A stretch of 56,813 nt of DNA from an uncultured Gammaproteobacteria bacterium (lineage in GTDB: Bacteria; Patescibacteriota; Microgenomatia; Levybacterales; GWA1-39-11). The stretch lies in the NCBI GenBank assembly GCA_964436385.1, contig CAYTCO010000001.1, positions 47,316 to 104,128 on the forward strand, given 5' to 3'. This document shows positions 15,694 through 56,813 of the stretch, one piece after another (the stretch's first letter is position 1; each line of letters begins with the position of its first letter). Below the pieces are notes generated by a model, which searched no databases, had not been told where the DNA came from, and was given only the letters and a program-made list of their open reading frames with translations. The position numbers and the translations under genes were made by a program.

Positions 15694-18600
15694 TGGAATG
15701 TGTATTAGCAAAAAATGGTAGAAATTCAAGTCTCCATAACGGTTTAAAAGGGTATTTAGAGATTGCCACTGGTGATCCTAAGCTTGTAGATAACTTGGCT
15801 TTAAAGGGATGGCTACGCGGACAATCCGAATCTTTAAAAGCCGAGTATCCCAATATGCCTACTGATGAAAACAATGAAGCCATTGTGTTCTATCATAACG
15901 AAAGTGTACGGTCTGATTCCAATAATCTTACTTTGGATGTTGCTGCCGTTGCTGATAAAATAGACCAATGGAAGCCTGTTTTCTTAAAAGATTCAAATAG
16001 CATAGTACAAGCTGATAACCCCTATTTTTTAGGCTATGTACCCAATGATAATACTATTCCGGTATTTGAAGAATCTATACAGAAACTAATTGACCGTCCT
16101 GTAGCATTAGCTACCGTTCCTATAAAAGAAGGAGTGCCAGAACTATTTGAATCTAATCCTGAATTAGCAAATGCTGTATATGAAGCTTTAGGATTTAAAC
16201 AAGTTTATCATGGTAGCAAAACAACAGAAAAGTATTCTGACTATAAAATTCCTGTAAATAAAGGAGTAGATAGTTTAGGTTCTTTTTTTACAAGCGATTT
16301 AGATGGAGCATTAATGTTTACTCCTGATTTTATTGATGAAAGTCCAATAGCTAAAGATGTAAAAGAAAGAACAGGAAGAGTGACTTATAAAAAAGACCGT
16401 AGTTATGTAAAAAAAGAATATTTAAAGTTACAAAATCCTTATAGTGTAGATATTAGAAAATGGGAAGATAATTCTTGGATTAATGATTTTGTTAAAGGTG
16501 ATTTTTCAATTTATAATTTTAATGAAGTGCCTTCAGAAATTGTTGATAGAGTTAAAAAAATATTAATAGATAGAGGACATGATGGAATTTATATTGCTAA
16601 AGACTTTTATGTTGGTAATATGGAATCAAGATATGACCAATATATTGTATTTGACCCTAATAAAACATTAAAACAACAAAAACAACAAGCTTTACAACTA
16701 TACTCTCAATACCTTAATAGTATATTTCCTAATAGTAAAGTAAAAGATATTGTTTATCATGGTATCACAAGTAGGATAAAAGAGAAATTTGATAAATTTT
16801 CAAAAGAGTTTATTAAATCAGGTCAAGGTAGATATGGAGAAAATGGGTTTTTCTTTTCAGAAAATAAGGAAGAAGTAAACAAGAATTATAATAATTCTGG
16901 GTTAATTAGTGCTGTAATTAATTTGAAAAATACAAATAGTGATATTTACAAAAATACTTGGAAAGAAACTGTAGAATATTTAACAGAACCTCAAGAAATA
17001 TATGGTGGTAAAACAGATTTAGATTATTTATCAGAAGGATATAGGGCAGCAGCTTGGTATAAAGAAGGTAATTGGAAAAAACAAGTAGAAAAGTTAAAAG
17101 AAGATGGATGGAAAATAGAAGAAACTGACAACTCTTATATTAAATTAGGGAAAATATCATCTCAAGAAAAAACATATTATAGTCATTTAAAGAAAAATTT
17201 AGAAAAAGGAACTTTACCTTTTAATATAAATAATTCTGTAGAAGCTATAAGAAAATCAAAAGAACAAGGGTTAGATGGATTAGTTTATGAAAATATTTTG
17301 GAAGAATCTTCTATTAATAAACATAATCAATATGTAGTATTTGAACCAGAACAAATTCATATATTAGGTGGTAAACAAGATATAGAAGGATTTAAAAACT
17401 TTGTAAATAACCAACCAAGTCAGCCTATGTATAGTCGTAGGAATACAGGTACTGCTACAGACGAAGCCGCACTATTGACATTTGCACGGTTTCTAGCTAA
17501 CAAAACCGGCATTAATTTCAGACTGGTTACTGCAGATGAAGCATTGCGTTTAAATCCTAATTACAATGGGGAGCCGGGCTTTTTCTATAATAACGTAGGC
17601 TATCTTGTAAAAGGTGTTGCAAACAAGTCAACAGCACTACATGAAATCTTTGGGCATCCCATGGTTGAATTATTGGAACAGCAGAACTTACCATTACTAC
17701 ATGAGCTTTTTAGAGCCATTCCCCAATCCATTCTTGATGAAACCAAATTGGCATATCCTGAGCATGTATTAGAAGATGGTACATTAGATGCCATAGGTAT
17801 GAAAGAAGCCTTAATTAAAGCTATTGAATATGAAGCCACCAATCGATTAGAAGCCAAGGATAGTACGTTAAAATCATTAATTGACCGTTTATGGATGTTT
17901 ATCAGTCGGTTGTTTAATAATACTCTTGATGTTAAGAACTTGGGCCGTTTTACTACAATTAAAGAAATAGCCGATTTAGCTTTCAACACTTCTTTATTAG
18001 ATACGCCTTTAGCCAGCAACCAGGTAATGTATTTCAAATCCGCTACTCAAAGTGAAACATTACAAAAGTTTGAAGCCGCTTTTGGACATTATAGCCAAGC
18101 GCCCAATGCCGATGGTATTGATACTTATACAAGTTCAAAAAATCCGTCTTTGGTATTAAAACGATTAACAGAAGAAGTAAGTCGTATTTTTAGTAATGAT
18201 ATTTTTGGAAAAGGTATTGATGAATGGGCTGCTAACAAAGCCACTAAATATTTTCAAAATGCTAGTGCTGTATTTAAAGATAATGATCGAAGTATAGCCA
18301 GTGGTAGTATTCAATTAGCTGATGGTATTTTTTACAATTATTCCGAATTAGTAGATTTTTATATCAAAGAGCGTAACACTAGCATGCGTAAAGGAAAACT
18401 ATTACATGCTATTATGGAATGGATTTTAACCGTTGATAGTGCTGCTAAAAGCGAAATTATGAATAGGATAGATGCAATGAGAGAACCCGAAATAGTTAAT
18501 GGTAAAATTATTGCAGATGGGATTGATACTTCAATGTACCATTATTTACATACCGTACCGGGTTCTGATGAAGAAGTAGATGATTATGAAGTATTAAAAC

Positions 18601-24530: not shown

Positions 24531-24923
24531 ATGGATATAAGATTATTAAGTGAGTTTAGTTCTTTAATTATTTCAACAATTAGTGGAATAGCTACGGGAA
24601 TGGTTGGAGTTTGGGGATGGTTTAAATTTAGAAAAAGGAATCAAGAAAAAACCCTATCTGAAATTAAAAAAGAAACAAAAGTCAACAATGTAGATGGCGA
24701 TACGGCATTGATTAATCAATTAGATATTTTACTAGTTAAAGTTTCTGTTATGGCTGAAATTCAAATTAAAATACAAACCGAATTAGCTATTCTACAAAAT
24801 AAAGAATTGTCCTATAAAGCAGCTTTTCATCGGATGCTTTTATTATGTGATGAAGTTTGTGAGAACTCTGAATTTTGTAAGAGTAAGATAAACGCAATAT
24901 TAACCGATTTAAAATTAAACTAA
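24531..24923 (+). CDS. Membrane protein with N-terminal TM helix and coiled-coil tail (lysis-cassette member, holin/regulator candidate)
   Basis: LIISTISGIATGMVGVWGWFKF hydrophobic segment. The stop overlaps the next start (TAATG). Confidence 0.4.
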   Translation: MDIRLLSEFSSLIISTISGIATGMVGVWGWFKFRKRNQEKTLSEIKKETKVNNVDGDTALINQLDILLVKVSVMAEIQIKIQTELAILQNKELSYKAAFHRMLLLCDEVCENSEFCKSKINAILTDLKLN

Positions 24924-25393
24924 TGTCATTTATACTAGAAGAAAAAGTAAGTAAAATAAACTCAATATTAGAGACTACTATGTTGAGATTGTCTATAATT
25001 TTGATTTCAGATGTGAGCCATACCGCTCTATTTGAATTAGGAGAAAAATTGGTATCAGAGCATTGTGACGAAATTTCTGATGGTGGTTTTTGGGTGTGGA
25101 ATCATAACACCAATGAAGTTTATTATAGCCCTAGATTTTGCACAACCTTGGGTTACAGTTATGGTGAGTTAGGAAAAGGCTTTTCGGGTTTTAATCGTGG
25201 TAATCCAGAGCAAATGAAAATGGGCATGGCGCTTATACAAAGCTTAATTGATACAAAATCCCATGATACTTTTATAAACGTAATTGAATTTACTAAAAAA
25301 GATGGAAGTACTATACTTATTGAATGTAGTGGAGCAGTATTGTTTATAGACGATATACCATTTGTTGTATTAGGAACACATAAAATTAAATAA
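24923..25393 (+). CDS. PAS-like domain protein in the lysis cassette
   Basis: GFWVWNHNTNEVYYSPRFCTTLGYSYGELG ... FTKKDGSTILIECSGAVLFIDD resembles the PAS/PAS_3 fold signature. Confidence 0.4.
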   Translation: MSFILEEKVSKINSILETTMLRLSIILISDVSHTALFELGEKLVSEHCDEISDGGFWVWNHNTNEVYYSPRFCTTLGYSYGELGKGFSGFNRGNPEQMKMGMALIQSLIDTKSHDTFINVIEFTKKDGSTILIECSGAVLFIDDIPFVVLGTHKIK

Positions 25394-25394
25394 T

Positions 25395-25610
25395 ATGAAA
25401 ACAACTATTTCTTTTAAAAACTTTGCATTGCCAAGTCCTAAGTGGTTTAAAATAACTAAGAAAGTATTATCTTGGTCTACAACTTTAACATTAGCTATTT
25501 GTATGATTTACATGCCTGAAAATAGTAAAATGTTATTAGTTTTGAAATTAATACAAAGTTCCACTATGGAATTTTTAGATTCTTTATTAGCCGAAGAACC
25601 AAATTTATAA
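25395..25610 (+). CDS. Small membrane protein (holin candidate)
   Basis: 71 aa with the hydrophobic segment VLSWSTTLTLAICMIYM. It sits upstream of the endolysin. Confidence 0.4.
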   Translation: MKTTISFKNFALPSPKWFKITKKVLSWSTTLTLAICMIYMPENSKMLLVLKLIQSSTMEFLDSLLAEEPNL

Positions 25611-34136: not shown

Positions 34137-34844
34137 TTACCATTTAATGAGTTCACCTAATTTATTAGCCCTTATTATAGCATTTGCTTTTGAAAAACAA
34201 TGTACAACCCATTCCGGATTAGGATTCTTTTCGGCAGCAGCTCTGTATAAAGCCGCGGCAGGGTGTTCATCGAATAACAAAAAATGCCCATGTAAAAATA
34301 CATTAACATTCTTTAATATCAATTGGGCATCTCGGCCCCAACCAAACCACAATATCCCTCGTGTAACTTCTTCAAGTCTTGTAACTAAAAATGTGATAAA
34401 GGGCTCCCAAATGGCAGTATGACTACCAGCTGTATTTTCAACTACAGTCAATGAGCTATTTAATAGCAAACCACCCTGTTTAGTCAAATAGGTAAGGTCA
34501 TTATTTCGTGGCTGTTCTGTAGGCCCATTATCACGATGTATGGCATCATAAATCAGCTTCAAGGATTTTGGTGTAGGATTGGATGGCGATGTAGAAAAAG
34601 CCAATCCATCAGGCAATCCTTTAGCTGGATACGGGTCTTGTCCAATGATTACAAAACGCAAATCTTCTAATTTGGTTTCTGTAAAGCATCTGAAGATTTG
34701 AGATTGTTCAGGAAGTATTACTTTCCCGGCTTCTCGATCAGCTTTTAAAGCTGCTAATAATGTGTCCATTTGTGGACTTGTTGCAAAGGGCATGACTACA
34801 TCAGCCCAGGTTTGAAAAATTGCAATTACTTGTTCTCGTGTCAT
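34137..34844 (-). CDS. ung: Uracil-DNA glycosylase (family 1-like)
   Basis: VIIGQDPYPAKGLPDGLAFS (GQDPY motif) and a C-terminal EHPAAALYR segment in the position of HPSPLS. Confidence 0.7.
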   Translation of the reverse strand: MTREQVIAIFQTWADVVMPFATSPQMDTLLAALKADREAGKVILPEQSQIFRCFTETKLEDLRFVIIGQDPYPAKGLPDGLAFSTSPSNPTPKSLKLIYDAIHRDNGPTEQPRNNDLTYLTKQGGLLLNSSLTVVENTAGSHTAIWEPFITFLVTRLEEVTRGILWFGWGRDAQLILKNVNVFLHGHFLLFDEHPAAALYRAAAEKNPNPEWVVHCFSKANAIIRANKLGELIKW

Positions 34845-41931: not shown

Positions 41932-42657
41932 TTAAATTTTGATTTTTTTGAGATTTAAGGTTTCAGTATTGATATAGGCTCCAGACCAGGTTATTTCCTT
42001 TTTGGTGATAATATCCCATATCAAATTGCATGTAACCACAGCCATGTATTGGTTTACCAATATACTTTGCTCATTTAAGGATTCAGCTACTGAGCAGCTA
42101 GGTCCTTTGGTTTTTTTGTTGGATGGCCTTTTTTTGTATAAATCAATTACTGAAGGAATATTGAAATCAGTCATGATGATATTACCGGTATTTTTACCAT
42201 TTCCTGTATCAATCCAATATAATGGCTGTATTTCATGATTAACATTAGCCTTGGATTGCAATATATTCGATATGATTATTCTGCTTTTGCGCGTATCCGT
42301 ACATGTGATTACAATATGAGAGGAAATATCAGCTTTTGCTGTTGATTCCGTTACTTTATTGGTATCTGCTTCCCATCGACTACCCGAATACCGGTTTATT
42401 CGGTTTATTAGGGTAATGGCTTTATTAGCACCCATTTCAAATTCAGAAAAGCCTTGCCGAGCCGGGTTAGATTCCGATACGGTATCGAAATCAATGGCTT
42501 TAACCTGTAACTGCAATCCCTTCAATTTTTGAAGAGCATAATTAAATCGCATCAGAATTGGCAATATCAATGAGCCGGTACCACCTACTCCTATTAAGGA
42601 AATAGTGATTTTTTGGTAGGGCGGCTCTTGTATTAATTTGTTAATCGTTAGAGGCAT
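41932..42657 (-). CDS. ThiF/MoeB-family E1-like adenylyltransferase (short, PRTRC-type size)
   Basis: ISLIGVGGTGS Rossmann loop, AIDFDTVSESNPARQGF and VITCTDTRKSR. Confidence 0.7.
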   Translation of the reverse strand: MPLTINKLIQEPPYQKITISLIGVGGTGSLILPILMRFNYALQKLKGLQLQVKAIDFDTVSESNPARQGFSEFEMGANKAITLINRINRYSGSRWEADTNKVTESTAKADISSHIVITCTDTRKSRIIISNILQSKANVNHEIQPLYWIDTGNGKNTGNIIMTDFNIPSVIDLYKKRPSNKKTKGPSCSVAESLNEQSILVNQYMAVVTCNLIWDIITKKEITWSGAYINTETLNLKKIKI

Positions 42658-46109: not shown

Positions 46110-46327
46110 TATTTTAAAGTTTTGTATTCAATAATTCCATCTTCATTTTTAGTTCCAATTGTTATTTTACTTTTCACAGATTTCTTTAATCCTAAAAAAA
46201 TCAAAATTCGTTGCCATTTGTTTGGTTCTTTTTCATAAGGATCAAATCCTACTACATACTTTTCAGAAATGTCTATTTTAGATGTTTCTGATATAACTTT
46301 TGATTGTTTTATAAGTTCCATTCCCAT
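46109..46327 (-). CDS. hypothetical protein (72 aa)
   Basis: Start and stop share one nucleotide with each neighbour. Confidence 0.5.
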   Translation of the reverse strand: MGMELIKQSKVISETSKIDISEKYVVGFDPYEKEPNKWQRILIFLGLKKSVKSKITIGTKNEDGIIEYKTLK

Positions 46328-47220
46328 TATTTTTTAAGTTGTTTAAGTGACCAATTTTGTTTAAAAGTAAATCCGGAATAGACTTCCATTTCAATCATTT
46401 CATCAAGTAATTCAGGATCTGCATCAGCTCCGTTTTGCATGTCATTGAGAGAGCCGAGAATACATATTTTGCAGCTTACTCTTTCATTGCCTTTTACGTA
46501 TGCTGGATGAAATGGCCATTCTGGATTTATAAGTTTATGATAAATATATTCTACTCTAAAACAATCTAATAAATGCTTTCTCATTCCATATGTAGACCAT
46601 ACTTCATCAAGTGTAAAATTGAATATAGGGTACCAAGTCAGTATAAGCCGTTTTTTGGGGTTATAATTTTCCAAACACCATTCAACTGGTATTGGCTTAT
46701 AGACTTTCTTTCTATCGGATATTCTCGATGAATGCCAATACTTGTAATACTTACTTGAATTATCTCTGACAGTAAGGGGTTCCTTTTTTGCCCTGGCTGG
46801 ACTTTCTTCGGCTCTGATACCTTCACATGAAATAATGAAATTATGACCTGTAGAGGTAAAGAATGCATTAATGGGAGCTCTTTTGAGATCACTTGTGCAA
46901 TACCGGCTTGCTGAACTACTCCAAAACGGAATTCCTTTGCCTTGTAGCTTATGCATTCGTTTTTGCCAGTATTCCAATAGTCCTAAGCCATCGGCTCGTT
47001 TAACAACAAAAAGAGGAACATTGAGTTCCTCTGATTGTCGTTGGCACATTGATATGCTTTCTTCCCATTCTACTTTACCGAGATCAGCATGAATGAGACC
47101 TTCAATAGGAAAGCCCCATTCATGTAGCATTTTTGTCATTGCTTGACCATCTTTACCACCGGAGATAGATGAATAGATTTTGGCACCTTTTGAAAGGGCT
47201 TGTTTGATTAGTTCAATCAT
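46327..47220 (-). CDS. PP-loop ATP pyrophosphatase, PAPS-reductase/DndC-like family
   Basis: SSISGGKDGQAM (SGGKD PP-loop), RYCTSDLKRAP, GIRAEESPARA and C-terminal CKICILG. Confidence 0.7.
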   Translation of the reverse strand: MIELIKQALSKGAKIYSSISGGKDGQAMTKMLHEWGFPIEGLIHADLGKVEWEESISMCQRQSEELNVPLFVVKRADGLGLLEYWQKRMHKLQGKGIPFWSSSASRYCTSDLKRAPINAFFTSTGHNFIISCEGIRAEESPARAKKEPLTVRDNSSKYYKYWHSSRISDRKKVYKPIPVEWCLENYNPKKRLILTWYPIFNFTLDEVWSTYGMRKHLLDCFRVEYIYHKLINPEWPFHPAYVKGNERVSCKICILGSLNDMQNGADADPELLDEMIEMEVYSGFTFKQNWSLKQLKK

Positions 47221-51572: not shown

Positions 51573-52133
51573 TTATATTAATCCTTCGTCACGGAATGAA
51601 AAGAAGTTGTTATTTACGGTACCAGCTACAATGATATGGTCTGTTACTTCTATATCTAAAATCTTACCGGCTTGCACTATTCTTTCTGTTAATCTTTTAT
51701 CAGTTTCTGATGGATTAACATTGCCAGATGGGTGATTATGACATAAAACGATTCTTGTACATTTTTTTGTTTCAAGAGCCATTGAAAATATAATTCGTTG
51801 GTCTACTACAGTTCCTGTAATGCCACCACTTGATACTTTTTCGGTTTTAATAACCACTCCATTGTGTTTCATAAAAATGACATAAAAATGCTCAACATCT
51901 TCCCATTTCATAAACTGCAAAATATCGTAAGCATCTTTGGATGTATGAATTTGTTTAAGTTCACTATTAGCATATCGGCTTTTTATTTCCTCACATATTG
52001 CAAGATGTTTGTTAATTGGAAAATCAGCCAGGCTCTTTTTATAACCTAAGCAAGCATATAGTTCTTCAGTACTGTATTTGCTTGCATTCAGGTTATCGAA
52101 ATCACGGATGTTTTTTACTATTTGTGTTGTCAT
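51573..52133 (-). CDS. radC: RadC-like JAB/MPN (JAMM) domain protein
   Basis: IVLCHNHPSGNVNPSETD (H-x-H-P-x-G ... S-x-x-D JAMM motif). Confidence 0.85.
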   Translation of the reverse strand: MTTQIVKNIRDFDNLNASKYSTEELYACLGYKKSLADFPINKHLAICEEIKSRYANSELKQIHTSKDAYDILQFMKWEDVEHFYVIFMKHNGVVIKTEKVSSGGITGTVVDQRIIFSMALETKKCTRIVLCHNHPSGNVNPSETDKRLTERIVQAGKILDIEVTDHIIVAGTVNNNFFSFRDEGLI

Positions 52134-53829: not shown

Positions 53830-54249
53830 TTATCTATCTTCTTTTGTGAATCCAGCTGAATCTATTTTAGGTCCATTATCAATGATGATTTCTTCAACAA
53901 TCTTTCCATCGATTAACCTTGATATAGAGCAAAATTCTACATCTTCTTTATTTAATAAATGTTGTAGTAATTCTGCATGTTCTGATTCTGTTTCTAATGA
54001 ACCACATTCTGTAGCTATTGAATTAAGGCCTTTTATTCTAAAAGCACCATAGGGATTTACTAATTCAGTATATTCCCAATCTTCTTCAGTAAGCTCAGTT
54101 AATAGCTTATCTCTGTTTTTAATGGTAGCTGATCTATTATAGCCACAATTATTACAAGAAATCCATTCTTCGCCTGTTTTATAATTAAGTTCATCCCAGG
54201 CTTCTTGTCCACAATTAGGACAGTCTATTGTATTTCCAATGCTTCCCAT
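53830..54249 (-). CDS. Zinc-ribbon protein (139 aa)
   Basis: CPNCGQ ... CNNCGY four-Cys ribbon near the N-terminus. Confidence 0.55.
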   Translation of the reverse strand: MGSIGNTIDCPNCGQEAWDELNYKTGEEWISCNNCGYNRSATIKNRDKLLTELTEEDWEYTELVNPYGAFRIKGLNSIATECGSLETESEHAELLQHLLNKEDVEFCSISRLIDGKIVEEIIIDNGPKIDSAGFTKEDR

Positions 54250-55201: not shown

Positions 55202-55261
55202 TTTTAACGTGCGATAAGCGCAAGCTCCGAAGCGAAGCCAGCGCCTATCGGAACGTTAGGC
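55202..55261 (-). repeat. attC-like imperfect hairpin site C (60 bp)
   Basis: + strand: TTTTAAC-gtg-CGATAAGCGC-aa-GCTCCgaagcGAAGC-ca-GCGCCTATCG-gaac-GTTAGGC. It starts 6 nt after the stop of ORF 55268. Confidence 0.55.
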
Positions 55262-55267
55262 AACATA

Positions 55268-55477
55268 TTAGCCAAGCCTATCTTTGATAATAGCGTTTAT
55301 TTTCTCGATGAAAATATTTCGCATATAGTCATAATCACAAGTTTCTCCTGCAAATATATCGGGGTCTTCGATTTTTACGAGTTTATCCAAGTGCCAATAT
55401 TTTTCAGCCCATTCAATAAACTCTTGTCCTACCGTTTCTTTTTCTTTAATTTCTGTTCCTGCTTCTAAAATACTCAT
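55268..55477 (-). CDS. Cassette ORF C, hypothetical protein (69 aa from ATG 55477)
   Basis: The listed 76-aa form starts at a TTG inside the 7-mer site. The ATG at 55477-55475 lies 12 nt downstream of the site. Confidence 0.55.
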   Translation of the reverse strand: MSILEAGTEIKEKETVGQEFIEWAEKYWHLDKLVKIEDPDIFAGETCDYDYMRNIFIEKINAIIKDRLG

Positions 55478-55489
55478 AATAAATACGTT

Positions 55490-55613
55490 GCCTAACAAAG
55501 TGTATAAGCAATAGCCGTTAGGCGTTTTAAACTATTGCAGTTGTTAATATCAAATTTTATCATTCTAATCAAGTTCTGTGTTCGGCTACTGCTCATACAC
55601 TCGACCGTTACCT
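55490..55613 (-). repeat. attC-like imperfect hairpin site B (124 bp)
   Basis: + strand: GCCTAAC-aa-AGTGTATAAGCAATAGCCG (55499-55517) ... 65-nt loop ... CGGCTACTGCTCATACACT (55583-55601)-cgacc-GTTACCT. 17 of 19 stem positions pair, and both mismatches are G-T on the minus strand. Confidence 0.55.
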
Positions 55614-55619
55614 GCAAGG

Positions 55620-56075
55620 CTACCTTGACACTTCCACATCAGCATCAGGGTATTCATAACAAGCATTTAAGTAATTCTCTACAAACTTGACAAGTCCATC
55701 ATAAGAACCCCATCCGTTTTCAGGATTAAACTTCTTGTATCTTTCAGGTTCGCTTTTCAAATTATGCAATCCTTGTCTTAATGGTTCAATCAATTCTTTT
55801 GCCTTTGTAATTTTAATTTCATCTGGTCGCCACAAATGCTCATAAATACCTGCTTCACCTGCCATAGTATTTAAGTTATGGGTAATGTTTGCAGAATAAA
55901 CTTCGTTTGTTTCGGTTTCTTCTTGCTCAAACTTAACAGGTTTGCTATTTGGATTTTTTGCGTTCCATTCTTCTTGTGTAATCTCTTTTGTTTGTCCATT
56001 TTCACGAACAAAAATTCCTGATGAAGCCTTTTTAATTTGTGGCTCTTTAGTAATTAAATAAACATCTAAACTCAT
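55620..56075 (-). CDS. Cassette ORF B, hypothetical protein (151 aa, MSLDVYLITKEPQ...)
   Basis: The N-terminal 68 codons of the listed 219-aa ORF read through the GC-rich hairpin site and look non-coding. The ATG at 56075-56073 was chosen. Confidence 0.6.
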   Translation of the reverse strand: MSLDVYLITKEPQIKKASSGIFVRENGQTKEITQEEWNAKNPNSKPVKFEQEETETNEVYSANITHNLNTMAGEAGIYEHLWRPDEIKITKAKELIEPLRQGLHNLKSEPERYKKFNPENGWGSYDGLVKFVENYLNACYEYPDADVEVSR

Positions 56076-56114
56076 TTTGTTTCTTTTAAAGTTCCTACTG
56101 ATAAGCCGCCCAGC

Positions 56115-56209
56115 AGGTAACAGCGGTTTGGCAAAAGCTGCCATTGAAATTCCGTGCGAAAATTGAGCATCCGTTAGGCAGCCTTCGCCAAGCCGCCCGA
56201 ACGTTATAT
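56115..56209 (-). repeat. attC-like imperfect hairpin site A (95 bp)
   Basis: + strand: AGGTAAC-a-GCGGTTTGGCAAAAGCTGCC (56123-56142) ... 34-nt loop ... GGCAGCCTTCGCCAAGCCGC (56177-56196)-ccgaac-GTTATAT. 17 of 20 stem positions pair. Confidence 0.55.
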
Positions 56210-56278
56210 GAAATGCCTTGCTGACGTGTTCCAATTGAAGTTCCGTGAAGGAAAAACAAAAAGAAAAAAGCCACCGCA

Positions 56279-56713
56279 CTATTTTTTACGTTTATATTTT
56301 TCAAACCAAGTTCCATCAAATCTTTTGTCAGTTCCGTTAATCCCCCATTTATCCCAAAAGTCTTTACACCATTTTGAATTACTTCTTTCTGGAGCATCTT
56401 TAAACCTTCTCGGTTCTGTTCCTCTTATTTCTTCTGTAAACTTTCCGTTTTCATCTGCAAAATTCCAATACACCGTTCCGAATCCAAGTGCATAAATAAC
56501 ATCTCGTATATCCCAACAAGGTTCATACGGATAAGGCATTATGTTTTTAATATAAATCTCAATGCTATTATCATAATCATCAGAGCCAATTGAAAAATCC
56601 AATTTATCGTAATTATCGGGTTCGTATTTTTCAAATGCTTCCATTATTATTTCTTCAACTTGCCCTTGCACCCTATAAGAATCGTGTAGTCTTTCTGCTA
56701 TTGTTTTTTCCAT
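56279..56713 (-). CDS. Cassette ORF A, hypothetical protein (144 aa)
   Basis: Clean ORF flanked by a 21-23-nt polypurine/polypyrimidine inverted repeat and by the GTTATATGAA / TTCATATAAC junctions. Confidence 0.65.
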   Translation of the reverse strand: MEKTIAERLHDSYRVQGQVEEIIMEAFEKYEPDNYDKLDFSIGSDDYDNSIEIYIKNIMPYPYEPCWDIRDVIYALGFGTVYWNFADENGKFTEEIRGTEPRRFKDAPERSNSKWCKDFWDKWGINGTDKRFDGTWFEKYKRKK

Positions 56714-56783
56714 CGCTTTTTTTTCTTTTTGTTTTTCTGTTTAGTGTTCCAATTGGGCTTTATCGTAAATAAGTCGGCACTTC

Positions 56784-56813
56784 ATATAACAGCACCTAAC
56801 CAAAAGCGGCAAG
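56784..56813 (-). repeat. Left end of a fourth hairpin site (truncated by the window)
   Basis: ATATAAC-agcacctaaccaaaagcggcaag. The 7-mer is the exact complement of GTTATAT at 56203-56209. Confidence 0.4.

Follow-up and report, generated by a model that had tools for sequence, protein, structure and literature searches.

Canonical attC sites, the recombination sites of integron cassettes, have R and L boxes with an unpaired spacer at the centre, and the 3' arm of their recombined bottom strand contains two extrahelical bases; in Vibrio one site family, the VCRs (Vibrio repeats), is common to unrelated open reading frames (ORFs), as in the arrays described below. Canonical integrons are nearly absent from Bacteroidetes. 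Cassette arrays in phages are not new as a bare idea, because attC-like clusters in phages were reported by Qi et al. 2023, the only paper returned by literature searches for a phage integron with its own recombinase. The literature searched contained no account of a dedicated non-IntI recombinase, an attI-like site, site families or their spread. Here, a row of hairpin sites and small ORFs was examined at positions 55202-56813 of a 56,813-nt stretch of phage DNA (contig CAYTCO010000001.1), the whole of which is called the window and supplies the numbering. This region is very probably the visible part of a mobile cassette array built by integron-like site-specific recombination at a GTT/AAC core, and there is good reason to believe that the array is a member of a widespread integron-like system in Bacteroidota phages, which has its own small recombinase rather than IntI. 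The features of the region are as follows, with ↓ marking the boundary between units here and below.

Site A, 55202-55261, minus strand: 60-nt hairpin at the backbone end of the array; plus strand TTTTAAC...GTTAGGC.
Cassette 1, 55256-55607, minus strand: 352 nt from G↓TT to G↓TT, made up of TTAGGCAAC..., ORF1, ...GTTGCCTAAC and hairpin B.
ORF1, 55268-55477, minus strand: 69 aa, without a Pfam family.
Site B, 55490-55613, minus strand: 124-nt hairpin of the "B family"; plus strand GCCTAAC...GTTACCT.
Cassette 2, 55608-56203, minus strand: 596 nt, made up of TTACCTGCAAGGCTAC..., ORF2, leader, AGGTAAC and hairpin C.
ORF2, 55620-56075, minus strand: 151 aa, without a Pfam family.
Site C, 56115-56209, minus strand: 95-nt hairpin of the "C family"; plus strand AGGTAAC...GTTATAT.
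Cassette 3, 56204-56813, minus strand: ends at the window edge; made up of TTATATGAA..., ORF3, ...TTCATATAAC and the start of hairpin D.
ORF3, 56279-56713, minus strand: 144 aa, without a Pfam family.
Site D, 56784-56813, minus strand: ATATAAC...; the window holds its 3' end only (ORF-sense ...GGTGCTGTTATAT).

Sites A, B and C and the start of D can be read directly in the sequence where the initial annotation of this region had placed them, with plus-strand ends NNNTAAC and GTTANNN; on the ORF-sense strand, site A reads GCCTAAC-G...CACGTTAAAA. The three ORFs all lie on the folding (minus) strand, with stops 6, 6 and 69 nt from the downstream site and ATGs 12, 39 and 70 nt from the upstream site, in agreement with the layout first described. 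Across each ORF, the right 7-mer of one site and the left 7-mer of the following site are reverse complements. The complementarity covers 11 of 12 nt at the first junction (GTTAGGCAACAT / ACGTTGCCTAAC), 9 of 9 at the second (GTTACCTGC / GCAGGTAAC) and 13 of 14 at the third (GTTATATGAAATGC / GCACTTCATATAAC), the last of which had been counted as 12 of 13. The corresponding pair is GTTAGGCAAC / GTTGCCTAAC in cassette 1 and GTTATATGAA / TTCATATAAC in cassette 3, and with such complementary ends a unit would therefore form one continuous stem if it were circular. The triplets AAC and GTT are invariant in these cores; GTTAGGC/GCCTAAC fits the integron consensus RYYYAAC/GTTRRRY, and GTTACCT and GTTATAT deviate from RRRY. 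The cassette sizes of 290, 625 and 670 bp in the initial annotation turn out to be distances from left end to left end, and the core-to-core lengths of cassettes 1 and 2 listed above replace them. It had also placed extra GTTAGGC copies in sites B and A; the first is present, but the second belongs to site C. These internal copies (55517-55523 and 56173-56179; GCCTAACGG in ORF sense) sit in the loops of the B and C families and are conserved in all B/C-family copies from other loci (L005-L047 in our numbering of related loci). They could serve as a second core, or as partners of the GTTAGGC at the R' end in an alternative structure.

Chain pairs of this kind were counted as exact 9-mers (GTTA plus 5 nt, followed within 3 kb by the reverse complement of those 5 nt plus TAAC), with the reversed flank as control. 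Scans for TAAC...GTTA hairpins by minimum free energy or arm alignment were unspecific, and were dropped in favour of the chain-pair test and of words specific to site families because shuffled sequence gave equal numbers of hits. The whole window contains 5 chain pairs versus 1 in the control, and 3 of the 5 are the consecutive array junctions. A further pair, at 24735-25489 within ordinary coding sequence, appears to be due to chance, and the fifth (17867-18430) is also outside the array. In related loci, an exact partner (GTTA plus the reverse complement of the 5 nt) was found 190-510 nt to the left of 38 of 50 B- or C-family sites versus 2 of 50 on the control side, and the 508 kb of loci fetched contained 186 chain pairs, the control 50. 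In each of four loci (L008, L016, L019 and L024), about 10-13 units are chain-linked, most of them one directly after another. The rule that the first nucleotides of an integron cassette are complementary to its own inverse core, on which the initial annotation was based, therefore describes 3 of 3 junctions in the window and hundreds of related cassettes, including the 38 of 50 family sites and the recombinase-linked arrays considered below (308 pairs versus 28). Two loci stand out: L016 (1-10231) is a 10-kb viral contig that is almost entirely one cassette array, and the 642-kb phage LR756502 has a core-bounded 70-nt unit without an ORF twice in one array with different junctions (L002, 3735-3808 and 4131-4204), which behaves like an empty cassette.

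Taken alone, AAC/GTT cores of which one is the textbook GTTAGGC, together with a chain rule that is the cassette rule of integrons, would also suit a canonical integron fragment, a cluster of attC sites lacking an integron integrase (CALIN), in which the phage carries captured cassettes with ordinary attC sites that are served by the IntI of its host. There is precedent for such fragments, since Qi et al. 2023 (PMC9892861) predicted CALINs in 17 phages and showed recombination by IntI1 of 5 of 6 phage sites tested. The recombinase and the geometry of the sites, considered below, make this explanation unlikely for the present array.

When the region was compared with GenBank phages in a sensitive BLAST search, only the hairpin sites were matched: site B by a site between genes in Cellulophaga phage phi18:3 (approximately 82% identity), and site C by a site in the uncultured 642-kb phage LR756502 (85% identity). 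An exact 20-mer of site B was found in 19 IMG/VR stretches and an exact 24-mer of site C in 24 IMG/VR contigs and 8 contigs of metagenome-assembled genomes (MAGs), so that the two words together identified 43 IMG/VR contigs and 8 MAGs. Of the 8 MAGs, all with the site C word, 6 are assigned to Flavobacteriales, Flavobacterium, Chitinophagales or Bacteroidia and 1 was binned as Bacillota. When family copies are stacked, homology on the plus-strand right stops directly past GTT, the fourth base already being variable and differing with the next cassette; on the left it spans NNNTAAC and in the C family continues for about 45 nt more, to the ATG of the minus-strand ORF. Within this left stretch of the C family a second small hairpin covaries (cctactg/cagcagg versus agtgctg/cagcaca), and in the window this hairpin and the leader (56076-56121) adjoin site C and reach the ATG of ORF2. 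The C-family cassettes also have a common other end, GTTA(CC/TG)TGCAAGGCTAC; leader, hairpin and this 17-nt end would therefore be contiguous in the circular form. The ORFs within one site family are unrelated: the 24 C cassettes fall into 19 ORF families and the 14 B cassettes into 13. The ATG of the ORF always lies toward the inverse-core side.

Read in gene sense, a unit usually opens with TAA↓C-G, a 48-125-nt hairpin and GTTA with the next 5-13 nt; a short leader connects these to the ORF, behind which the 5-13 nt return as their reverse complement, and TAA↓ closes the unit. The family comparisons mostly tie a hairpin to the ORF whose ATG follows it, and not to the ORF upstream as initially assumed. 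Cassette 2 is the clearest example from the window itself. It is about 96% identical to L012 5736-6333 (mismatched alignment columns counted by reading), has different neighbours from that counterpart on both sides, and homology ends at the GTT cores. Homologs of ORF2 were found by tblastn in L012, L006, L019 and L128, with clustering adding an ORF of L013; those of L006, L012 and L019 are C-family cassettes, and the one in L128 (4593-4994, 50% identity) lies about 2 kb upstream of the L128 recombinase. The exact ORF3 protein was found on two short ENA contigs only, whole in L003 and partial in L004.

Conserved intergenic repeats that flank small ORFs in a plastic early region are also known from T4-like phages, where repeats of a promoter plus a stem-loop (PeSL) are exchanged by homologous recombination (PMC2839356, PMC4122927), and at 82-100% identity over about 100 nt the members of the B and C families are similar enough for such exchange. 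Homologous exchange does not, however, produce complementary flanks across ORFs, and it does not account for a dedicated tyrosine recombinase linked to the arrays or for breaks that fall at the AAC/GTT core between partners that are otherwise unlike, such as the attI-like site and hairpins, or the Freya junctions described next. PeSL-type shuffling is therefore considered very unlikely.

Presence/absence breakpoints at G↓TT, which the initial annotation had named as the expected trace of cassette movement, were found in three sets of related phages. In four phi18:3-like Cellulophaga phages, the sequence is the same as far as ...TTAGTTATATAACATTGTT, beyond which it is wholly different, reading GGCACAAT, CCTGCAAT, GAGTGCAT or GTGCGTAAT. 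In L061-L063, divergence begins exactly at nnnnTAAC↓TAATCGC. In the Polaribacter phages Freya_1 and Freya_10, the two flanks agree at 100% and 99.8% identity, and an extra block of approximately 4.9 kb with about a dozen small ORFs is present in Freya_10 and absent from Freya_1. This block, bordered by ...GTTTACAAC↓ and ↓ACCCCTATAACAACAATAAG (also written ...ACAAC↓ and ↓ACCCCTATAAC), is found approximately 45 nt ahead of the ATG of an "integrase"; Freya_6 has a further unit that ends ...CTACCAAC↓. Freya_1, 6, 8 and 10 (L144-L149; MT732463, MT732468, MT732470 and MT732472) are near-identical cultured isolates with genomes of 44.0-48.9 kb, and for Freya_1 and Freya_10, the only pair compared across the junction, nearly all of the difference in length is due to the block at the AAC core. 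The sites of Freya and Ingeline look unlike TAAC...GTTA hairpins, reading AAC-G and then GGTATGG....

Clustering of ORFs over the array-bearing loci revealed a tyrosine recombinase in 6 loci, in 5 of which it lies directly at the same end of the array. The protein has approximately 266 aa and the Pfam domains Phage_int_SAM_4 and Phage_integrase. Its best NCBIfam match is XerA_Arch (146-209 bits, cut-off 220); scores against the integron integrase model TIGR02249 are 97-204 bits (cut-off 265), and those against XerC and XerD are lower still and far below the cut-offs. Among solved structures, the best match is Pyrococcus abyssi XerA (4a8e), which aligns as a single stretch. The alignment to VchIntIA (2a3v) falls into two stretches that skip IntI residues ~218-265, i.e. 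the IntI-specific insertion is missing. The putative catalytic R-K-H-R-H-Y positions, assigned by reading, are among the invariant columns of the recombinase alignment. Homologs are numerous (more than 7000 at E <= 1e-15) and mostly metagenomic. The absence of the IntI insertion and the scores below the IntI cut-off argue against the array being a CALIN.

The link between recombinase and array was examined in 80 viral loci with the gene, by counting chain pairs within 5 kb. Upstream of the recombinase there were 308 pairs (control 28) and downstream 32 (control 36). The last chain pair typically ends 50-90 nt ahead of the recombinase start codon, and this interval contains a conserved, non-hairpin, attI-like motif, TAAC↓TATTATATATAAA, 40-90 nt upstream of the start (in fuller form nnnnnTAAC↓TAtTATATATAAA). 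Homologs from bacterial genomes (35-53% identity) have 23 upstream chain pairs versus 11 in the control and no upstream arrays, so that the arrangement seen in phages is not just a copy of one in host chromosomes. For a few of the bacterial homologs, one of them chromosomal in Desulfitobacterium, an array is present on the opposite side of the recombinase gene. In this Desulfitobacterium sp. Sab5 locus (NZ_CP172056; L189 6969-12091), six cassettes lie downstream of the homolog and on its strand, with attC-like hairpins of 70 nt (TAACA...GGGACGTTA) between them. A 492-aa version of the recombinase with an N-terminal extension of ~215 aa likewise has its array downstream (L054 4975-6453). Non-IntI integron-like arrays may thus also occur in bacteria, including Firmicutes.

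The hairpins themselves were compared in 154 unique sites from recombinase-linked arrays. Their lengths cluster at ~48, 85 and 122 nt, and their ORF-sense consensus consists of TAAC-G (96%), a bulge of ~5 nt, a stem, T at -19 (97%), A at -11 (98%), T at -5 (96%) and GTTA. These three marks are present in window sites B, C and D, the last of which thus matches the consensus of the 154 sites, and site A has C at -5. The ORF-sense strand gives the better fold in 138 of 153 sites, and in 308 of 349 units the longest ORF between cores lies on the strand of the recombinase, which is also the better-folding one. In the window, DNA parameters gave -17.4, -14.7 and -18.0 kcal/mol for the minus strand of sites A, B and C versus -14.3, -10.9 and -15.8 for the plus strand. 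The advantage of the minus strand is due to G·T pairs, of which its folds contain 3, 4 and 2 versus 0, 1 and 1, and the G·T asymmetry in favour of the ORF-sense strand that the initial annotation had raised as a caveat is therefore real. The caveat disappears if the plus strand is treated as the top strand; the better-folding minus strand would then be the one cleaved at the 5' AAC, as in integrons. RNAalifold, applied to 49 members of the 85-nt class with window site C among them, predicted 20 pairs; 17 of the 20 show compensatory changes, and at one of the pairs 47 of the 49 members have G·U(T). The 48-nt class has a conserved loop, TCGTTTTAATG.

The secondary structure therefore differs from that of attC, in that the extra nucleotides form a ~5-nt bulge in the 5' arm and G·T wobbles are conserved. 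This geometry, which does not place two extrahelical bases on the 3' arm, and the presence of the ORFs on the folded strand are further points against the CALIN explanation, as is the near absence of complete integrons from Bacteroidetes. In addition, in Qi et al. 2023 the sole site of the six that IntI1 did not recombine was P12002L_attC1, whose loop is the TCGTTTTAATG of the 48-nt class (PMC9892861).

The reading preferred here, a phage system with its own recombinase, can be put as a tentative mechanism. The recombinase would bind the hairpin of the ORF-sense DNA strand while this is single-stranded. The G·T wobbles, which become A·C mismatches on the opposite strand, would together with the 5' bulge leave only one strand competent; in integrons, strand choice depends on the IntI domain and the extrahelical bases. 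Cleavage would fall within the 5' AAC, and excised circular cassettes could then enter either the attI-like site or a further hairpin.

Several points weigh against this reading. Neither a tyrosine recombinase nor an attI-like motif adjoining the array was found in the 56.8-kb window, as the initial annotation had already remarked. No chain partner was found to the left of site A, which is a full hairpin beside backbone genes, and neither the attI-like consensus nor a recombinase adjoins it. Because there is no recombinase in 56.8 kb, the array is either served in trans, for example by a co-infecting phage or by a gene elsewhere in the genome, or a fixed remnant. Recombination by this enzyme at these sites, the choice of strand, the position of cleavage in AAC and the circular intermediate are all points that we infer from sequence comparison. 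The small recombinase was read as a lysogeny integrase and as a marker of a temperate lifestyle by the authors of Freya and Ingeline (PMC8776804); a dual role in the array and in lysogeny is possible. The integrase next to the array in phi18:3-like phages comes from another family. Here (phi18:3, L001 2236-3822, and L056-L059), the array ends at a mini-site, ATATAAC-ATT-GTT, which adjoins gp036 and an integrase with PF13102 and PF00589, not the small Xer-like recombinase. This integrase, phi18:3 gp037, was considered as an array recombinase and rejected: it belongs to a large, ordinary integrase family of Bacteroidota, is absent from other array loci, and has a 51% identical homolog in L060, where there is no array. 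It is therefore judged to be probably a lysogeny integrase that merely neighbours the array.

A further difficulty comes from ORF1. Its homolog (88% protein identity) lies within a recombinase-linked array at L135 699-905, but the unit is common to the window and L135 from core to core only, and the hairpins differ on both sides. Such sharing is unexpected if each hairpin has one crossover point, and it shows that the linkage between hairpin and ORF is not absolute. It would suit small transposable units, either of the type of miniature inverted-repeat transposable elements or insertion sequences (IS), with terminal inverted repeats of 9-14 bp, or single-stranded elements of the IS200/IS605 type that use hairpins: each ORF is flanked by the inverted repeats GTTAnnnnn / nnnnnTAAC, and the strand bias of the hairpins resembles that of IS200/IS605. 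No transposase is linked to the arrays, however, and the only IS seen is an unrelated one. The tandem arrays lie at one fixed locus beside a tyrosine recombinase, and hairpin and leader are conserved together with the cassette ends, all of which makes transposable units highly improbable. The IS in question, identified by eye, is an IS607-like pair of a TnpA serine recombinase (188 aa) and a TnpB-like protein (392 aa), situated in a 266-kb phage contig at a distance of about 1.2 kb from the recombinase of the array (L032 3752-5497).

Lastly, the conserved wobbles, being of the G·U type, would also fit a function in the transcript, and an additional RNA role of the hairpins is possible. That they are RNA elements only, i.e. 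intercistronic processing, stabilising or terminator hairpins of a polycistronic early transcript without DNA recombination, is extremely improbable. The wobbles are indeed conserved on the transcribed sense, and the hairpins stand directly 5' of the ORFs with a conserved leader up to the ATG. Against this, the sites gave no match to Rfam at gathering thresholds or even at E <= 1, and no T-run was seen by eye after the hairpins of sites A-C. A purely transcriptional role also leaves unexplained the complementarity across ORFs, the breaks of homology at a 3-nt core, the presence or absence of cassettes among near-identical phages, and the fixed end with recombinase and attI-like site.

The window is phage DNA, with ORFs of 5195 and 2035 aa and a replication module of DNA polymerase, Dda-like helicase and primase. 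The polymerase is nearest to that of Crassvirales (~28% identity), and the fragment is from a crAss-like phage. No extension of the contig was obtained: no relative was found in IMG/VR and no exact match in metagenome and genome collections, and protein look-ups returned contigs of 0.6-1.1 kb only. To the left of the array, the minus-strand block contains the following genes, given as a group.

51573-52133, 53830-54249, 41932-42657, 46327-47220 and 34137-34844, minus strand: a RadC-like JAB protein, a weak Lar-like zinc-ribbon protein, and ThiF-family, PAPS-reductase-like and UDG-superfamily proteins.

L035 and L060 likewise have homologs of RadC in the vicinity of arrays. A 60-nt TAAC...GTTA hairpin within the RadC-like gene of the window (52039-52098) has neither chain partners nor consensus marks and is probably a chance occurrence.

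The cargo of the arrays was surveyed by a Pfam scan of 148 longer ORFs (95 aa or more) between core pairs, a few of which probably represent chance pairs outside arrays. DNA methyltransferases are the most frequent family (20 of 148, roughly one in seven); other matches include an ADP-ribosyltransferase domain (ART-PolyVal), RNA ligases, Thg1 and NUDIX, and most of the remaining ORFs have no Pfam match. The methyltransferases, RNA ligases and ADP-ribosyltransferase domain suggest that the cargo is a shuffled store of counter-defence and accessory genes. At least six cassettes in L016 look like DNA methyltransferases of several classes.

With moderate confidence, these results can be extended to a broader proposal, namely that Bacteroidota phages ranging from ~40-kb siphoviruses to contigs of more than 300 kb, together with crAss-like phages, share a virus-borne gene-capture system of their own. 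Its parts would be a minimal Xer-like recombinase that lacks the IntI domain, a dedicated attI-like site and wobble-selected coding-strand hairpins; the system would trade counter-defence genes (methyltransferases, RNA-repair enzymes and small unknowns) between unrelated phages, and would represent an independent or early-diverged counterpart of integrons, with the window array as a client that lacks the recombinase. If so, phages own integron-like machinery for the exchange of accessory genes, beyond stray pieces of bacterial integrons, and there is a mechanism for the hyperplastic small-ORF regions of Bacteroidota phages. An "integrase" in such phages, now taken as a temperate marker (PMC8776804), would have to be read differently, and the arrays would form a concentrated and easily recognised catalogue of candidate anti-defence genes. 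The system would also be a second, simpler case of strand-selective recombination of folded single-stranded DNA that does without the IntI domain, and the finding on strand selection would bear on the origin of integrons from Xer-type recombinases. The occurrence of one site and leader on many unrelated ORFs poses the unsolved question of the origin of cassettes anew. The system can be tackled experimentally in cultured pairs of phage and host, such as those of Freya, Danklef, Leef and Ingeline.

Among known systems, Xer/dif and its pdif modules resemble the phage system in the recombinase, which is most similar to archaeal XerA (4a8e) and of similar size. Xer, however, acts on double-stranded dif of ~28 bp, whereas the phage sites are strand-asymmetric hairpins of 48-125 nt in arrays, and the phage recombinase scores below the XerA, XerC and XerD cut-offs. 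The PeSL regions of T4-type phages are alike in having small unknown ORFs in hyperplastic regions, stem-loop motifs and shuffling of modules, but their promoter-terminator motifs are thought to recombine by homology (PMC2839356, PMC4122927). The phage arrays differ from them in their breaks at a 3-nt core, their complementary flanks across ORFs, and their tyrosine recombinase with a dedicated site. The CALINs of Qi et al. 2023 are closer: that paper describes integrase-less attC-like clusters in virulent phages, with DNA methyltransferase cassettes, and the attC1 of the Flavobacteriaceae phage P12002L (Polaribacter phage) has the ends TAACG...TGTTA and the loop of the 48-nt class, TCGTTTTAATG (PMC9892861). 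The sites are treated there as parts of bacterial integrons and assayed with IntI1, and in the sections consulted a dedicated non-IntI recombinase, an attI-like site and site families or their spread are not reported (PMC9892861). Formally, a CALIN is a cluster of at least 2 attC sites recognised by the attC covariance model, with no intI nearby; the window resembles one descriptively, with four or more sites and 56.8 kb free of a recombinase.

The closest likeness is to integrons. In both, a tyrosine recombinase of the same clade (Xer/IntI) lies beside a simple attI-like site followed by a cassette array, imperfect hairpin sites of ~50-125 nt with invariant AAC and GTT separate the cassettes, each cassette starts with nucleotides that, owing to crossover at the core, are complementary to the inverse core of that cassette, and one strand, carrying the 5' AAC at the crossover side, folds better. 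As for attI, the conserved TAAC↓TATTATATATAAA is present in the relatives, and none lies beside the window array. The differences begin with the recombinase: a strict integron has an IntI with its additional domain near patch III, and the phage enzyme, of ~266 aa, has no IntI insertion and scores below the IntI cut-off, so that membership of integrons in the strict sense is not supported. The ORFs of phage cassettes lie on the folded strand and point to the recombinase, whereas those of integrons lie on the top strand, are read from the promoter Pc and diverge from intI. A phage hairpin is usually carried on the 5' side of its ORF together with a conserved leader, the phage sites have a ~5-nt 5' bulge and G·T wobbles in place of the two extrahelical bases of attC, and the elements occur in phages of Bacteroidota hosts. 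Because the IntI domain, the ORF polarity and the fine structure of attC are not shared, the array is not filed as an integron or as an IntI-dependent CALIN; of the integron-type cassettes proposed in the initial annotation, membership of canonical integrons is given up, and modular units formed by crossover at the GTT/AAC core are retained.

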